Assembly (NCBI GenBank): GCA_040754095.1
Contig: JBFMFO010000004.1
Coordinates: 3,475-67,474 of the forward strand
Origin: Thermodesulfobacteriota bacterium
GTDB taxonomy: Bacteria; Desulfobacterota; QYQD01
Direction: 5' to 3'
Length of the DNA stretch: 64,000 nucleotides
The translations under genes and the position numbers were made by a program. A model generated the notes under the pieces. It was not told the DNA's origin. It saw only the letters and a program-made list of their open reading frames with translations, and did not search any database. Shown in pieces: positions 1,839 through 52,880 of the stretch. The stretch's first letter is position 1. Each line of letters begins with the position of its first letter.

Positions 1839-3770
1839 TTATGACGCCCAGATAAGCTCACCGGTTTGGCTCGTATCATAGCCGCCCAACTGTTCAACGA
1901 TTTCCTTAAACTCAGGTGACATGATAACTGCCATGAGTGCACGGATTCTTTCATCATCCCAAAACATAGCCGGTATGACCAGATCGTAACGTTCCTTAAC
2001 TACCGAAATAAAATCTAACCCTAGCGCCCTGGCTGCCGCATATATGCCCAGGCCTACATCAGCGCTGCCGCTTAAGACATCCACGGCTACCGACATGTGG
2101 GTGTATTCTTCCCTTTCATAGCCGGTTATTTCAGCAGGAGAGATACCCAACTTTTTTAGCTGGAAATCAAGCAGGATGCGGGTGCCGGAGCCTGCCTGCC
2201 GGTTGATAAAGCCTACATCTTTACGCCTGAGATCGTGAATGGACCGGATTTCTTTCGGATTCCCTTTTGCGACCATTAACCCCTGCTCCCGATAGACCAG
2301 ATTTACCAATTTTACCGGGACATTGAGGATTATTTTTTTGATATATGGAATGTTATATTCTCCTGTTTCCGGATCAAAGAGGTGCGAGCCGGCCAGATGG
2401 GCCATGCCTTTGCCGATGGCCAGCAGCCCGCCGGTACTGCCGACATGGCTGGAGGACAGGCTTAACCGGGGAGTCCTTTTTTTGATCTCGTTGGCTAACA
2501 CGTCTATGGTGAGGTCATGGCTTCCGATGATGACCATGGTATCTGTGATTTCACGGGCTTCTTTTAAAAGTTCTATCTCCACTTCTTCATCGGCGTTTAT
2601 TCCCTCGGAAAGATGCGGTATGCGCAGTATGCCGTCGGCCTTGGTCAGGGTAGTAATCGCGCCGGCCCCGCGGGGCAGGGGAGTAGCGATGGTCGTATCG
2701 CCTACGCGGCCTACGTTGACCCTGAGGAATTCCTCCGTGCCCAGCTTGGAAGGGATCTTGCGCGCCGGTCTGGCCGTGATACGGGGACGTTCCGGTGGAG
2801 AGATGCCCAGCATTTTATAAAGAATGGGACGGACAAACCGGTCGAAGGAGATGACGGCCGATACCGGGTAGCCCGGATTTCCTATGACCGGCTTGCCGGA
2901 GATGGTGCCGAGTATCGTAGGCTTCCCCGGCATAATAGTCACTCCGTGCACCAGAACCTGGCCTAATTCTTTTATGACCTTAAAGGTATAGTCTTCCGAG
3001 CCGGCCGAGGAGCCGGCATTAATTATTACGCAGTCATAATCGGCGGCGCAGGCCTTTTGTACGGCGTCTTTGATACGGGCATAATCATCGGATATTATCT
3101 CGTGCCGGGTGGCGATGGCCCCGCATTTTTCCACCAGACCGGCCAGGATATGCGAGTTATATTCGACGATCTTTCCCCGGGGAGGTACATCACCGGTAAT
3201 GTCTTCGGCGGCTATGAGTTCGCTGCCGGTAGGTATGACGGCCACACGCGGTTTTTTCTTTACCGGAAGCATAAATATCCCGCCGGCCAGGAGCGCGCCG
3301 ATGTCAAACGGTGTTACGCGATGGTTCTGAGGCAATACCAGTTCGGTGGCCACGATGTCCTCGCCTACCTTGCGCACGTATTTCCAGGGATGGGCCGGGG
3401 CCTGTATTTCCACAGTGTTTTCGTCCAACTGGTGGACTTCCTCGATCATAATAACGGCATTGGTTCCGGGCGGCAGGATATGGCCGGTGTTCACAAAGAG
3501 TGCCTTTTTGCCGACGGTCAGTTGTCTGGGATTTCCTTCAGAGGCGCCGTAGGTATCTTCAGCCATAACGGCTATGCCGTCCATGGCCGCGGAGTGAAAG
3601 GACGGGGAAGAAAAACGGGCATATACAGCCTCGTCTGTGATTCGGCCCAGGGCCTCAGTCGCAGGAATCTTTTCGCTCTTGAGTATATGTGCATAATCAA
3701 GGGCATTGAAGAATATCTCCTGGGCCTCGGCCAAGGTCTTCATTTCCAGATAGATTTTCCGCAAAGCCAT
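1839..3770 (-). CDS. moeA: MoeA molybdopterin molybdo/tungsto-transferase fused to a C-terminal periplasmic-binding-protein-like (molybdate/tungstate-binding-like) domain
   Basis: 643 aa. The N-terminal ~400 aa carry the MoeA core (SPSFHSAAMDG..., GGVSVG-like region); the C-terminal ~240 aa form a PBP-like extension. ATG has a GGAGG RBS. Confidence 0.8.
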   Translation of the reverse strand: MALRKIYLEMKTLAEAQEIFFNALDYAHILKSEKIPATEALGRITDEAVYARFSSPSFHSAAMDGIAVMAEDTYGASEGNPRQLTVGKKALFVNTGHILPPGTNAVIMIEEVHQLDENTVEIQAPAHPWKYVRKVGEDIVATELVLPQNHRVTPFDIGALLAGGIFMLPVKKKPRVAVIPTGSELIAAEDITGDVPPRGKIVEYNSHILAGLVEKCGAIATRHEIISDDYARIKDAVQKACAADYDCVIINAGSSAGSEDYTFKVIKELGQVLVHGVTIMPGKPTILGTISGKPVIGNPGYPVSAVISFDRFVRPILYKMLGISPPERPRITARPARKIPSKLGTEEFLRVNVGRVGDTTIATPLPRGAGAITTLTKADGILRIPHLSEGINADEEVEIELLKEAREITDTMVIIGSHDLTIDVLANEIKKRTPRLSLSSSHVGSTGGLLAIGKGMAHLAGSHLFDPETGEYNIPYIKKIILNVPVKLVNLVYREQGLMVAKGNPKEIRSIHDLRRKDVGFINRQAGSGTRILLDFQLKKLGISPAEITGYEREEYTHMSVAVDVLSGSADVGLGIYAAARALGLDFISVVKERYDLVIPAMFWDDERIRALMAVIMSPEFKEIVEQLGGYDTSQTGELIWAS

Positions 3771-3959: not shown

Positions 3960-5294
3960 TCAAAATAAATAGACATCGACTATGGAATCCTTATCCAGTC
4001 CTTCTGTATTCATATCGACCCTGATTAATCCGTGGGCCTTGGTCATAGTGGAGATAAGCCCTGATTTGCCGAAGACAGGTTCGGCTACATAACCCGTTTC
4101 ATCTGAAAATCCCCCTGTGTCTCCCTTTCCCAAAGGGGGAATATGATGTGCTCCCCCCTTTTTAAAGGGGGGATGGGGGGATTTGAACGGCGCGTGTTTT
4201 TCATCAGGGAGGATGCGCACCCGGACATAGTCTTCCCGGCCCTGCGCAGACGGCACATTACGAGACAGCCGGGCCTTTATGAGTTGTGAGTGAGCTATTG
4301 TTTGTGGCTCAAGTCCTCCGATCCGTTGCAGCAAAGGACGGACAAAAAGCCAAAAAATAATCATGGAAGATGCCGGATGGCCGGGCAATCCCCAGAGGGC
4401 CTTCTTTCCGATCCGGGCCAGGATGGTAGGCTTTCCCGGACTTACGGATACGCCGTGCAACAGTATCCGGCTTTCAGGAAAGGACTCGAACACCGCGACC
4501 GTAAAATCCCGGCTGCCTACAGAACTCCCGCCGGATACAAGGATAATATCCGCCTGTTCTATCCCTTCGATGCACTTTGCGCGAAGGGCGTCAAATTTGT
4601 CCGGCACGATGCCCAGGTAACCAGGTATCCCGCCGTTTTCAAACACTGCGGCCCAAAGCGTATAGGCGTTGATGTCTCTTATTTTACCGGGGGGCGGCAT
4701 CTCTTGAATCGGGACTATCTCGTCTCCTGTGGAGATAATAGCCACCCGTGGTTTTTGATGAACAATGATTTTTTGCCGGCCAATTGCGGCCAATGCCCCA
4801 ATATCCTGAGGGCGTAACCTGTGTCCTCTGGACAGGATTTCTTCGCCTTTTTTCAAGTCTTCTCCACGCAGAATAACGTGTTCGCCGGGGGCGACCGTTT
4901 TCATGACCTCAATAGTCGTCTCGTCCGCTTGTTGTGTATATTCCTGCATGACTACGGCATCACCCCCTGGAGGGAGCATGCCGCCGGTCAGGATCCTGTA
5001 TGCCTGCCCACCCGAAAGCGCCCGGGAAGGAGATGCGCCCATATCTACGCTGCCGGCTATGGTCAGCAAGGCGGGCATACTTTCAGAGGAACCGAAGGTA
5101 TCTCTGGCCCGAACCGCATATCCATCCATAGTGGAACGGCTAAAGGGCGGCATATCTTCCGGTGAGATAACGGGTTCAGCCAAAATGCGCCCGGCACCTT
5201 CCGGCAGAGAGATTTCTTCCGTAGGTCCAACCGGGAACTCGTTGATAATAGCGAATACCTCGTCGGATGTCTTGACCTTAAAGAATTCTTTCAT
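3960..5294 (-). CDS. moeA: MoeA molybdopterin molybdenumtransferase paralog carrying an in-frame 37-codon repeat-element insertion
   Basis: 444 aa with MoeA N- and C-domains (SRSTMDGYAVRARD..., AEPVFGKSGLISTMTKAHGLIRV). The extra segment KHAPFKSPHPPFKKGGAHHIPPLGKGDTGGFSDETGYV is encoded by the palindromic element at 4104-4200. Confidence 0.8.
   Translation of the reverse strand: MKEFFKVKTSDEVFAIINEFPVGPTEEISLPEGAGRILAEPVISPEDMPPFSRSTMDGYAVRARDTFGSSESMPALLTIAGSVDMGASPSRALSGGQAYRILTGGMLPPGGDAVVMQEYTQQADETTIEVMKTVAPGEHVILRGEDLKKGEEILSRGHRLRPQDIGALAAIGRQKIIVHQKPRVAIISTGDEIVPIQEMPPPGKIRDINAYTLWAAVFENGGIPGYLGIVPDKFDALRAKCIEGIEQADIILVSGGSSVGSRDFTVAVFESFPESRILLHGVSVSPGKPTILARIGKKALWGLPGHPASSMIIFWLFVRPLLQRIGGLEPQTIAHSQLIKARLSRNVPSAQGREDYVRVRILPDEKHAPFKSPHPPFKKGGAHHIPPLGKGDTGGFSDETGYVAEPVFGKSGLISTMTKAHGLIRVDMNTEGLDKDSIVDVYLF
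4104..4200. repeat. MITE-like nested palindromic element, copy A (inside the moeA CDS)
   Basis: TGAAAATCCCCC...TCCCTTTCCCAAAGGGGGA...CTCCCCCCTTTTTAAAGGGGGGA...GGGGGATTTGAA. Terminal IRs AAAATCCCCC/GGGGGATTT enclose two internal hairpins. Related copies lie at 39304-39400 and 52769-52880. Confidence 0.75.
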
Positions 5295-5398
5295 TTTTGT
5301 TTCATAATAGAGTATCTTATAATATCTGCCTTACAAGGGACACAGAGATAAAAATTTCGAAGTGCGAATTTTGATGAACTCGTAAAAAGTAAAATTTT

Positions 5399-5480
5399 AC
5401 CGCAGAGATCGCGGAGAACGCCGAGATAACATATTGAATGGTTTAAGATTTTCCTCTGCGCCCTCTGCGTGCTCTGCGGT
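5399..5480. repeat. IR-bounded element (ACCGCAGAG...CTCTGCGGT) with three tandem CTCTGCG 9-mers, upstream of fdhD
   Basis: Perfect 9-bp IR arms at 5399-5407 and 5472-5480. The 9-bp-periodic repeats run CTCTGCGCC, CTCTGCGTG, CTCTGCGGT. Confidence 0.5.
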
Positions 5481-5527
5481 GAAACATCTTTTTTGCGAAT
5501 TGATCAATTTTAAAGGAGTTATCCATC

Positions 5528-6256
5528 ATGTCTTCCGGGCTCATTAAATCATTCCCGGTCATTCAAGTCAATAAAAATGGCCGCCAGATGGTCTCAGACG
5601 AGGTGGCATGTGAGACGCCCTGCCATCTTTTTATAGACCGGAACCTGGTTGCTACGGTTAGCGTCTCACCCATGGACCTGGAGGATTATGCCGTTGGCCG
5701 TGTGGTGACGGATGGGTTTTTGGCCTTTGAGGAGATCGCCGAAGTCAATATCGACGAAGCTGGAATCCATGTACGCAGCAAGACGGGTGTAGCTGTCGGC
5801 GAAAGACCGTCAGGGGATATTTCACCCATAGATTCGGCGCTGCAAATCTCGGAAAGGCAGGTACTGTCCTGCGCCGGTTCTTTATCCTCCTTTGCAGGCC
5901 ATTGGCAGAGGACGGGGGGATTGCACATTGCGGTCTTGTTTGACCGCCGTAGCGAGCTGATCCGGGCAGCGGAAGATGTCGGGCGTCATAACGCGGTGGA
6001 CAAGGTGGTGGGCCATGCCTTTAAAAACGGCCATAATCTTTCGGAATGTTTTCTGGTGTGCAGCGGCCGGCAACCGGAGGATATGGTGGCCAAGGTCGCC
6101 AGGGCAGGTATCCCCGTTGTTATTTCACGCGCGGCAACTACCGATCGGGGCATTGCCCTGGCGGATAAAGTCGGCCTGACGTTGATCGGCTTTGCCCGGG
6201 AGGATCGTTTTACCGTTTACACTCATCCCGATAGAATTATCAAATCTTCCTTATAA
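5528..6256 (+). CDS. fdhD: formate dehydrogenase accessory sulfurtransferase FdhD
   Basis: 242 aa: CETPCHLFIDRNLVATVSVSPMDLEDYAVGRVVTDGF and VGRHNAVDKVVG are FdhD motifs. Confidence 0.8.
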   Translation: MSSGLIKSFPVIQVNKNGRQMVSDEVACETPCHLFIDRNLVATVSVSPMDLEDYAVGRVVTDGFLAFEEIAEVNIDEAGIHVRSKTGVAVGERPSGDISPIDSALQISERQVLSCAGSLSSFAGHWQRTGGLHIAVLFDRRSELIRAAEDVGRHNAVDKVVGHAFKNGHNLSECFLVCSGRQPEDMVAKVARAGIPVVISRAATTDRGIALADKVGLTLIGFAREDRFTVYTHPDRIIKSSL

Positions 6257-6371
6257 AGTGTGTATAGGCACAACATATAGTGTGCCAATCTCATCCGACA
6301 ACAATATGATATTATTAATATTTGCTCATGTGTATATTTTAACAAAAAGTGAGTGTTCATTCATTTAATAC

Positions 6372-39156: not shown

Positions 39157-39303
39157 CTCCCAGCAGAATAAACGGATTACAGCCGACGTAATAAGTATCC
39201 GCCCGACTAATAGAAGACACGTAGTTTACTTAATTAAGGATGTTCCATTTTCTTCCCCCAAAAACTACTTTCTGAGTATCAGTTTAGCTGGTTGAAAAAG
39301 TAT

Positions 39304-39400
39304 TTTAAAATCCCTCCCAACCTCCCTTTTCCAAAGGGAGGAGAAACACCTCCCCCCTTGAAAAAGGGGGATTAAGGGGGATTTTTGAGGCGCCGTTTTT
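39304..39400. repeat. MITE-like nested palindromic element, copy B
   Basis: TTTTAAAATCCCTCCC...CCTCCCTTTTCCAAAGGGAGGAG...CCTCCCCCCTTGAAAAAGGGGGATTAAGGGGGATTTTTGA. Confidence 0.7.
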
Positions 39401-39477
39401 TGGACGACCAGCTCTTTTCAAACAGCTAAAGTGTTACCTTTCTGAAAATATAAAAAATATCCGTTGAAATAGCATGA

Positions 39478-39792
39478 ATGCCGTGCTATTATGTATATGT
39501 GATTCAGGCATTCAAGAATAAAGGGACAGAGGATATTTTTAATGGTAAAAATACAAAAGAAGCCAGAAAAGTATGTCCTCGATCACTATGGCAAGTCGCC
39601 TCAAGAAAACTGGATCAACTCGATTCTGTTCAATTCTTGGATGAGTTACGTATTCCACCTGGAAACAAGCTTGAGGCTTTATCAGGAAACAGAGAAGGGG
39701 AATATAGTATTCGCATAAATGACCAGTATCGGATTTGTTTCAAGTGGACAGAGGCTGGTCCCGATGTAGTTGGAATTACTGATTACCACTAA
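39478..39792 (+). CDS. higB: HigB-type toxin (RelE/ParE superfamily)
   Basis: ...IQAFKNKGTEDIFNG...LEALSGNREGEYSIRINDQYRICFKW. The real start may be in-frame GTG 39499. A TTGAAA-17-TATTAT promoter with an ATAGCA/TGCTAT IR sits upstream. Confidence 0.75.
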   Translation: MPCYYVYVIQAFKNKGTEDIFNGKNTKEARKVCPRSLWQVASRKLDQLDSVQFLDELRIPPGNKLEALSGNREGEYSIRINDQYRICFKWTEAGPDVVGITDYH

Positions 39793-52144: not shown

Positions 52145-52768
52145 TTACTTACTCTTCAGTTCCTTAATCCATTCCGGCGGGGCTCCGGCGCGGTAGGCAT
52201 CCTGGATAAGACCCTGGTCAAGCATGTATTGGGCCTTTTTGGCTTTTTCTTCCAGTTCCGGCGTGATCTCCTGCAACCGTTTCAATTCCCGGTAGTCATC
52301 AATAAGTGGCCCCTGGTTAAGGATGATGCCCTCTTCAGTGCGTGTTCCCTGCCTTACCCTTCCCCGGCGTAACGTCGCTATATCCTCATTATTTTTTTTA
52401 ACTTGTTCGGTTAACCGTTTGACCTCATCCTGCCACTTTTTCTTTTGCCCCAGCCACCATTCTTTATTTTGTCCCCTCACATCGGTGCGGGTATCCGGCT
52501 TTTCCTCTGCTGATAGGGGCGGCGGTACAGGTGATACGGTCGGCGCTATGGATTTCTCCGGTGCGGGTGGCGGGGGTGGCCGCCTATCTATGCTTTTTTG
52601 CTCTGCGCGTCCCTTAAATCTGGAAGGTACATTTTCCGGATTATCTGTGTAATGTGTTACGCCCTTCTCGTCTGTCCATTTATATATCGTACCCTGGGCG
52701 AAGGAAACAGATACAGAAATTACACAGACGGTAGCGATAACCAGTTTATACCATAAGGATATTTTCAT
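52145..52768 (-). CDS. DUF4124-domain secreted protein with Pro-rich linker and coiled coil
   Basis: 207 aa: signal peptide, IYKWTDEKGVTHYTDNPENVP (DUF4124-like), then a PPPPPAPEK linker. Its ATGAAA start abuts the MITE copy C. Confidence 0.6.
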   Translation of the reverse strand: MKISLWYKLVIATVCVISVSVSFAQGTIYKWTDEKGVTHYTDNPENVPSRFKGRAEQKSIDRRPPPPPAPEKSIAPTVSPVPPPLSAEEKPDTRTDVRGQNKEWWLGQKKKWQDEVKRLTEQVKKNNEDIATLRRGRVRQGTRTEEGIILNQGPLIDDYRELKRLQEITPELEEKAKKAQYMLDQGLIQDAYRAGAPPEWIKELKSK

Positions 52769-52880
52769 CTGAAAATCCCCCTGTATCCCCCTTTTCCAAA
52801 GGGGGAATTGATGGGACTTCGTCTTTCCCCAAAAGGGGGGCTTAACGGATGCCCCCGTTTTAGTAAAGGGGGGTAAGGTC
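52769..52880. repeat. MITE-like nested palindromic element, copy C
   Basis: CTGAAAATCCCCCTGTATCCCCCTTTTCCAAAGGGGGAATTGATGGGACTTCGTCTTTCCCCAAAAGGGGGGCTTAACGGATGCCCCCGTTTTAG. Confidence 0.7.

Follow-up and report, generated by a model that had tools for sequence, protein, structure and literature searches.

A moeA gene (molybdopterin molybdotransferase) on contig JBFMFO010000004.1 of a Thermodesulfobacteriota bacterium (assembly GCA_040754095.1) is interrupted in frame by 102 nt of repetitive DNA. The stretch of that contig analysed here, called the window throughout, is 64,000 nt long. By its sequence architecture the inserted DNA reads as an inverted doublet of the BoxC/PIT units also described as 'intrastrand triplex motifs', in a separate sequence subfamily of that class, and repeats of this class are physically associated with DUF559 genes in many phyla. 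Taken as a whole, the explanation that we regard as likely is that a BoxC-type inverted doublet inserted in moeA and is translated as a tolerated loop, its mode of entry and a role for a DUF559 nuclease being putative parts of that explanation.

The product of the interrupted gene matches the profiles MoeA_N, MoCF_biosynth and MoeA_C. The last match is split, and only the final 48 profile positions (25-72) align, at residues 398-444, because the domain is interrupted by the insertion. The initial annotation had described a palindromic element read in frame inside moeA without stops, and this is borne out together with the peptide that it quoted; its estimate of about 37 codons, however, has to be lowered to 34, since alignment with 12 orthologs places the inserted peptide KHAPFKSPHPPFKKGGAHHIPPLGKGDTGGFSDE at residues 366-399 and leaves the residues TGYV outside it as MoeA's own. 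The alignments also bear out that this segment is an insertion. Three orthologs of 410 residues (P0003-P0005), about 90% identical outside the gap, are without exactly these 102 nt and 34 residues, and in the best solved homolog, the P. horikoshii MoeA (PDB 1uz5), which aligns to residues 4-361 and 401-444, a single residue stands opposite about 39 residues of the window protein. The boundaries may be shifted by up to 7 nt, owing to a direct repeat, TTTCATC, of which the empty alleles have a single copy (CGT GAT GAA/ACG GGC), whereas the window allele reads CCT GATGAAA-(95 nt)-GATGAAA CGGGT (Table 1). The insertion is not an assembly artefact, as the identical 444-residue protein was found, among 5.8 billion proteins searched, in both an NCBI Thermodesulfobacteriota metagenome-assembled genome (MAG) and a Logan assembly, and a 444-residue relative that is 87% identical (P0002, from a JGI metagenome) has a diverged copy of the insert.

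Table 1. Positions, in the window, of the interrupted moeA gene, the parts of its insertion and the related copies
Feature	Positions	Strand	Basis
moeA (molybdopterin molybdotransferase) open reading frame, 444 residues, host of the insertion	3960..5294	-	domain matches, homologs, AlphaFold2 model, Foldseek
In-frame insertion, 102 nt, codons 366-399 (KHAPFKSPHPPFKKGGAHHIPPLGKGDTGGFSDE)	4098..4199	-	codon alignment with empty-site orthologs L002-L006 and protein alignment
Direct repeat TTTCATC, left copy (GATGAAA on the coding strand)	4097..4103	+	junction alignment
Triplex-motif unit A, AAAATCCCCC-TGTGT-CTCCCTTT-CCC-AAAGGGGG as read on the plus strand	4106..4139	- (purine-rich strand)	pairing and triad scoring
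Spacer between the two inverted units	4140..4152	.	sequence
Triplex-motif unit B, CCCCCCTTT-TT-AAAGGGGGG-AT-GGGGGGATTT	4153..4184	+	pairing and triad scoring
Right-hand extension GAACGGCGCGTGTT, homologous to the copy 3 flank (GAGGCGCCGTTTTT)	4185..4198	+	copy alignment
Direct repeat TTTCATC, right copy	4199..4205	+	junction alignment
Copy 3, intergenic inverted doublet, nested in a composite of about 165 nt (39282-39445)	39305..39386	+	similarity
Copy 2, intergenic, between a DUF4124 and a histidine-kinase open reading frame	52763..52880	+	similarity; shares TTTCATCTGAAAATCCCCCTGT with the moeA copy

The DNA at 4097-4205 has a terminal inverted repeat, AAATCCCCC / GGGGGATTT, matched at 9/9 positions, and inner hairpins that pair at 10/10 and 8/9; predicted folding energies are -45 kcal/mol for the plus strand and -40 kcal/mol in the mRNA sense (z about -3 against shuffles). 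Both features had been pointed out in the initial annotation and both are present, but a better reading makes the terminal repeats the third strands of two intrastrand-triplex units, in which they mirror the purine arm of the hairpin. The repeating unit, about 31-36 nt long, consists of AAAT-C5-6, a linker of 2-5 nt, C5-6TTT, a loop of 2-3 nt and AAAG5-6; on the other strand it shows a pyrimidine (Y) stem CCCCCTTT, a loop, a purine (R) stem AAAGGGGG, a short loop (often TTA) and a third block, GGGGGATT, also given as GGGGGATTT, that mirrors the R-stem. The allowed triads (G.G-C, A.A-T and T.A-T) are found at 8/8 or 9/9 positions in every parsed unit except unit A of the moeA copy, which has decayed to 7/8 with one mismatch. 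Unit B obeys the rule at all 8 scored triads, and the units of the P0002 copy, those of window copy 2 and one unit of copy 3 do so at 9/9, the other copy-3 unit being unparsed. A structural triplex finder, in a control run, recovered both moeA units.

BoxC, or PIT, elements are reportedly due to Bachellier in the 1990s and to Hoyne and Maher in 2000. BoxC was found again twice, first under the name of PIT elements and later as 'intrastrand triplex motifs', for which triplex formation has been shown in vitro (Holder et al. 2015, PMC4666352). The same study counted 3610 copies of the E. coli-type motif TMECO in 262 proteobacterial genomes, found pairs in inverted configuration as well as an association with rearrangements, and reported that all 23 copies of K-12 are intergenic (PMC4666352). 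For the window units, triplex formation was assessed here through the pairing rules. The window units have a Y-stem, a complementary R-stem and a mirror R-stem, within the bounds of the class (6-15 nt for stems, 1-6 nt for loops), and their second loop is often TTA; they are about 35 nt long, frequently stand in inverted pairs, are multi-copy and dispersed (three copies in 64 kb), and share with BoxC a wide phylogenetic spread and an association with local rearrangement. They differ in their stems, CCCCCTTT/AAAGGGGG/GGGGGATT as against CCCTCNCCC/GGGNGAGGG/GGGNGAGGG in E. coli, so that the TMECO consensus CCCTCNCCC-N3-6-GGGNGAGGG-N3-GGGNGAGGG is unmatched by the window stems, the exact pattern appearing only in the E. 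coli control. They differ also in their Thermodesulfobacteriota MAG host, in the position of the class beside DUF559 genes, and in that the intergenic-only property reported for K-12 does not hold: the moeA copy, and a copy in RecJ described below, are predicted to be translated.

The related intergenic copies that had been noted elsewhere in the window are indeed there (copies 2 and 3), copy 2 being 93% similar to the moeA element over 46 nt (E = 3e-14). The hairpin pattern matches the window 16 times, always at one of the three copies, where 0.26 matches are expected from shuffles. A degenerate pattern common to five copies, AAATCCCYC-N5-9-CCCTTTNNCAAAGGG, for which the random expectation is below 1 in 596 Gb, occurs in at least 120 genome stretches from many phyla; the hosts among the listed matches include Desulfobacterota, Nitrospirota, Alpha-, Beta- and Gammaproteobacteria, Omnitrophota, Chloroflexota, Parcubacteria, Ignavibacteria, Methylomirabilota and others. 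Neighbouring units form 57 inverted and 4 direct pairs. Rfam returned no family at its gathering threshold in the whole window and chance-level matches only around the insert, and a literature search by the literal repeat sequence led to NF-kB-type sites only.

Several other repeat families were compared. The initial annotation had likened the element to Rickettsia palindromic elements (RPEs) and to Correia elements, and the first analogy is apt: RPEs are palindromes of about 100-150 bp that lie in frame in unrelated housekeeping open reading frames (ORFs) and are translated and compatible with the protein fold (PMC10969869). On the other hand, they form Rickettsia-specific families with conserved peptides of their own, without the triplex-mirror architecture or a known DUF559 link, and nearly half the members of some RPE families lie in ORFs, as opposed to about 3% of the elements here. 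The moeA element is probably not an RPE, in view of its Thermodesulfobacteriota host and the explanation by another family, the BoxC/PIT/triplex class. Correia/NEMIS elements and other bacterial MITEs (miniature transposable elements with inverted repeats) resemble it in size (about 100-150 bp), terminal inverted repeats, dispersed copies and occasional coding insertion. Yet the inverted repeats of Correia elements are 26 bp long and of another sequence, and with them go a TA duplication, promoters and an IHF site. The moeA element shows none of these, and membership was rejected on its ends (AAAATCCCCC / GGGGGATTT) and its flanking repeat (TTTCATC). A CRISPR-like array, integron attC sites, intrinsic terminators and GTAG-tagged REP sequences were likewise rejected, their spacing, sequence or architecture being unfit.

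The insertion in moeA is old, since its divergence matches that of the gene between two lineages. The P0002 insert occupies the same site and differs from the window insert at 10/102 positions (90% identity), and the divergence between the two genes, 0.105, is about that of the insert. Outside the insert, however, P0002 stands much nearer to the empty alleles (divergence 0.046) than to the window gene, and it agrees with them at 73/82 informative sites; the nine exceptions comprise four scattered sites and five consecutive ones directly upstream of the insert. The simplest reading is that of one old insertion, present in some alleles and absent from others through short-patch recombination; the 7-nt direct repeats may also have allowed its loss by slippage. 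Two independent insertions, one in each lineage, by an element that targets GATGAAA would explain why the P0002 backbone stands nearer to the empty alleles, why its insert is nearer the family consensus than that of the window, and why the 7-mer of the moeA junction abuts other copies too. We nevertheless consider this unlikely, as the two inserts are alike in site, orientation and chimeric make-up (the left part like copy 2, the right extension like copy 3) besides being 90% identical, and as the five consecutive upstream sites, common only to the two insert-bearing alleles, are the signature of a transferred patch. The contig that encodes P0002 (L001, JGI 3300045008) has its moeA outside the usual fdhD-moeA-moeA/PBP context, among toxin-antitoxin-type genes (DUF433/DUF5615) and type VI secretion genes VipA/VipB, with a further repeat copy after the stop codon; from these neighbours and the extra copy, the locus has been rearranged.

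In the predicted structure of the protein, the insert protrudes from a beta-hairpin tip of domain IV as a disordered stretch, and the MoeA fold stays intact. An AlphaFold2 model built with 75 homologs has a mean pLDDT (predicted local distance difference test) of 87.4 and a pTM (predicted template modelling score) of 0.81, and Foldseek ranks MoeA and gephyrin E structures as its top matches (TM-score to target 0.81-0.89). In the model, residues 369-397 loop out between the domain IV strands 354-363 and 402-406, with pLDDT block means of 38, 31 and 44, in line with the surface loop that the initial annotation had suggested as a possibility. All 56 columns that are invariant across the 75 aligned homologs include the window protein. 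The ratio of non-synonymous to synonymous substitution rates (omega) is 0.21 outside the insert, that is, moeA is under purifying selection, and 0.67 inside it, a value that comes from small numbers (3 synonymous and 7 non-synonymous changes).

We read the insert as selfish or structure-prone repeat DNA and not as an adaptation of MoeA. The opposite, that MoeA has recruited it, say as a loop for interaction or regulation, and retains it through selection on the protein, appears highly improbable to us. It has remained open and in frame in two lineages at a synonymous divergence (dS) of about 0.3, and interactions can be mediated by loops in domain IV of proteins of the gephyrin/MoeA type. Yet the closest relatives of P0002 do without it, omega is higher inside than outside, the modelled segment has a pLDDT of 31-44, and peptides of like type occur in unrelated proteins. 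Moreover, most of the examined differences between the two copies fall in the stems of the repeat, and the P0002 stems are identical to those of window copy 2 where the window moeA copy has decayed; the pattern therefore tracks the DNA repeat and not a protein motif. It is also very unlikely that the insertion inactivated moeA, which would now be decaying while the adjacent MoeA-PBP fusion paralog (1839-3770) supplies the function. That paralog has all the MoeA domains and lies immediately downstream, and in the E. coli structure domain IV contributes to the active-site cleft of MoeA dimers. Against this, the ORF is intact, omega has stayed at 0.21 across a dS of 0.3 since the insertion, the 56 invariant columns are kept, and the insert sits at a hairpin tip of a fold still modelled with confidence. 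Relatives with an empty site share the same two-gene arrangement of moeA and MoeA-PBP, so that the paralog is no insertion-specific replacement. On its other side moeA is flanked by fdhD (5528-6256). The syntenic relative L002 has sat and aprAB-type genes close by, an indication of a sulfate reducer.

The moeA copy is not alone in being read in frame. Among 286 elements in all loci, 34 frame-and-strand combinations have an ORF that spans the element with long flanks on both sides, and several of these ORFs are clearly real proteins. The RecJ of a Nitrospirota MAG (L036 6770-6813), compared with solved RecJ structures, is longer by 27 residues (...NPPSPPFVKGGMG...) that immediately follow the DHH motif. 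According to strand and frame, the peptides carry the signature [IS]P[PL]xPPFxKGGxGG[FI] or KSPLxPLFQRGE. Further candidates are a TIR-STAND NTPase, just before its P-loop (L041 4594-4696), a multihaem cytochrome (L084 6959-7039), an RlpA-like tail (L040 675-708) and a DNA methyltransferase (L097 3395-3455); for the linker of an ABC-F ATPase (L012 531-596) the solved homolog ends before the segment, and the case is undecided. Read-through of the family is seen in RecJ and is probable for further genes in other phyla, in what would be a parallel, at a frequency of a few per cent, to the RPEs (PMC10969869).

A candidate protein partner for these repeats came from the genes around them. When all ORFs of the 120 repeat-bearing loci were clustered by protein, the two largest clusters, ABC ATPases and histidine kinases, were dismissed as ubiquitous families, and the only other shared family was DUF559 (PF04480, E about 1e-31), with proteins of 100-122 residues in 4 loci of 3 phyla. 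Each of these loci shows the same layout: upstream, a hairpin-GGGGGATTT unit stops a few bases short of the start codon, and downstream, a AAATCCCCC-hairpin unit follows at the stop or immediately after it. In a reverse test, 80 metagenomic loci (77 distinct genes) were picked only by similarity of the DUF559 protein and their flanks scored in fixed windows, an earlier count by ORF extension having under-counted (for example in L139). A unit was found in the upstream flank in 53/71 cases, in the downstream flank in 56/75 and in at least one flank in 65/69 loci, as compared with 3/1238 background windows of the same loci (Fisher P about 1e-74 upstream and 1e-77 downstream). A second set, on plasmids and chromids, was collected by tblastn (37 records at 30-47% identity), and 10 taxonomically diverse loci were scanned with the structural triplex finder. 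Motifs were present in 9/10, 28 in all, each lineage having its own stem sequence; the hosts were Photobacterium, Deinococcus, Sphingomonas, Azospirillum, Pseudanabaena, Synechocystis, N. gonorrhoeae, PCC 7002 and Methylobacterium. In 200 kb from four of the same replicons, 0/184 control windows had a motif (P = 1e-14).

The DUF559 genes look functional from their sequences: 76/77 are intact and 74/77 keep E-x-D-G-x-x-H. The two units that flank one gene are about as similar to each other as to the units of other genes (0.890 versus 0.882, p about 0.07, no significant excess), because the subfamily is too uniform, and co-variation of gene and repeat was seen only between distant lineages. On the chromosome of a member of the Nitrospirales (OY820905, L070), an intact DUF559 gene has the same layout with a variant repeat (...GGTGGGGTAGAGTC / GACTCTACCTCCCC...), and 2.5 kb from it (5150-6350) lie tandem units of about 275 nt, each with a truncated DUF559 gene of about 46 codons between two repeat units. 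The DUF559 ORFs of L149, L153, L147, L141 and L181 run into the downstream repeat and end in residues that it encodes (...KSPLTPLFQRGE*). On the Sphingomonas plasmid L210 (197-733) the annotated 179-residue DUF559 coding sequence extends upstream through two triplex units, so that either its start was mis-called or repeat sequence is read as protein.

Among the PD-(D/E)XK nucleases, DUF559 falls in the Vsr clade (PMC3424549), which also includes the EDxHD homing endonuclease I-Bth0305I (PMC3239194). The proteins described here resemble the EDxHD/Vsr-like endonucleases in clade, small size and conserved E-x-D...H, and a selfish lifestyle is documented in that clade; the known members, however, act in T/G mismatch repair or are found in group I introns and inteins. 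In the literature searched, neither free-standing Vsr-like genes bracketed by triplex-type repeats nor a link of DUF559 or YcjD to BoxC/triplex repeats is described, and the cross-phylum link appears to be undescribed. The arrangement also recalls the REP/REPIN-RAYT systems, with short palindromic units as singlets and inverted doublets, one or a few repeat-flanked protein genes per genome, and a repeat sequence that co-varies with the gene lineage. Unlike REP sequences, the units here lack the GTAG/CGTC tag (they start with AAATCCCCC) and carry a third, mirror strand, and the flanked gene encodes a PD-(D/E)XK Vsr-like DUF559 protein instead of an HUH/Y1 transposase (Y1_Tnp).

E. coli K-12 has a single DUF559 gene, ycjD, which ends inside a degenerate unit (...TCA CCC TCT CCC TGA), so that the C-terminus of YcjD, ...RRSPSP*, lies in that unit (L207 2908-2925). 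An exact TMECO motif is found 168 nt downstream of the ycjD stop, and a duplicated fragment of the ycjD 3' end (ggagacggtgctggagaatattc...) stands between ycjD and the downstream BoxC (L207 2800-2870). A perfect 17-bp inverted repeat (TCACCTCATTCTGACAA / TTGTCAGAATGAGGTGA) overlaps the start of the gene (L207 3258-3302). The gene is present in 3377/5426 complete E. coli genomes; the fabI-sapF gap is occupied by ycjD in phylogroups A, B1 and C and by eefRABCD in B2, D, E and F (PMC12817139). BoxC-like places were counted per chromosome in an evenly spaced sample of the genome ranking: the 37 chromosomes with ycjD have 15-30 (median 21) and the 21 without it 1-18 (median 4; Mann-Whitney p = 1e-9), in agreement with the published 29 copies in 55989, 23 in K-12 and 1 in IHE3034 (PMC4666352). 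These counts fit a dependence of the repeat on ycjD.

In the explanation that we prefer, a BoxC-type doublet became inserted at GATGAAA, which encodes the beta-hairpin tip of MoeA domain IV; being 102 nt long and happening to be free of stops in that frame, it would be translated as a disordered loop of 34 residues rich in Pro, Gly and Lys, which the enzyme would tolerate. The doublet may have entered by break repair or by template switching primed by the 7-nt microhomology, a route favoured over classical transposition because there is no general target-site duplication and because the 7-mer abuts two other copies. A DUF559 (YcjD-like, Vsr-fold) nuclease acting in trans would generate or maintain the repeat population, in a role parallel to that of the RAYT transposases, which are thought to act on REP/REPIN sequences. 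A classical MITE, that is, a non-autonomous derivative of an insertion sequence whose terminal inverted repeats are recognised by a transposase that leaves a 7-bp target-site duplication, would account for the 9/9 terminal repeat, the multiple dispersed copies and the 7-nt direct repeat that exactly flanks the insert and is single in empty sites. It is nonetheless improbable. Around 26 other doublets the longest shared flanking word has a mean length of 4.35, compared with 4.22 in controls, which is no excess; TTTCATC also precedes the element, at the same end, in window copy 2 and in L013, a contig piece of a probably related MAG, and so may be element sequence. The triplex mirror rule accounts for the 'inverted repeats', and no transposase family is common to the 120 loci, where DUF559 is the only shared family other than housekeeping ones. 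Similarly, Holder et al. explicitly reported neither a transposase nor an integrase near the E. coli copies (PMC4666352).

Several points weigh against the explanation just given. As to the insertion mechanism, no general target-site duplication is seen around the 26 doublets, and the 7-mer that would have primed entry may itself belong to the element, since two other copies carry it. As to the nuclease, tblastn found no DUF559 gene in the 64-kb window or in L013 and L020, the two other contig pieces, from the MAG that is probably related. Repeat-adjacent proteins served as seeds of the metagenomic DUF559 set, which therefore tests a subfamily; of the two sets the plasmid one alone is semi-independent, with controls from 4/10 replicons. 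The E. coli correlation is confounded by phylogroup and shared ancestry, the ycjD-negative genomes being those of B2, D, E and F (PMC12817139). Finally, the association gives no direction: the repeats could be landing sites of a homing gene or substrates of a repair nuclease. Alternatives to be considered are that the DUF559 nuclease gene homes into repeat pairs, that DUF559 is a repair enzyme for structure-prone DNA, or that the genes and the repeats both simply accumulate in unstable regions. The wider proposal, that DUF559/YcjD-type nucleases are the missing protein partner of BoxC/PIT/triplex repeats throughout bacteria, a second REPIN-RAYT-like system, made up of a PD-(D/E)XK nuclease and a unit that forms a triplex or hairpin, in which the nuclease makes, spreads or preserves the repeats or homes into them and the MoeA and RecJ loops are by-products, is tentative; we hold its chances to be a little short of even.

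Some further features of the intergenic copies may be recorded. Copy 3 lies within a palindromic composite of about 165 nt with outer inverted repeats GTTTAGCTGNTTGAAAAAG ... CTTTTCAAACAGCTAAA, which recurs with about 93% identity in three places (window 39282-39445, L001 about 3962-4125 and L013 about 3200-3370) and is a second-order composite repeat; a HigB-like toxin gene (39478-39792) directly adjoins the copy. On the minus strand, the end of copy 2 (52745-52790) reads GGGGGATTTTCAG ATG, with a Shine-Dalgarno-like GGGGGA 7 nt before the start of the DUF4124 ORF (52145-52768), and in most DUF559 genes the GGGGGATTT block likewise precedes the ATG by a few bases. Judging from these positions, ribosome-binding sites may be provided by the repeat.

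Knowledge of the BoxC/PIT/triplex motifs dates from the 1990s; they are conserved in hundreds of genomes and are tied to genomic instability, while no function, origin or mobility factor has been found for them. The strong cross-phylum association with DUF559, which is also specific in structure, makes this question directly testable in E. coli K-12, whose ycjD is uncharacterised. The moeA insertion extends the phenomenon known from the Rickettsia RPEs to another class of repeats and to environmental phyla. On this reading, repeats described as strictly intergenic can enter proteins as tolerated loops, which bears on annotation as well as on the origin of new surface segments.

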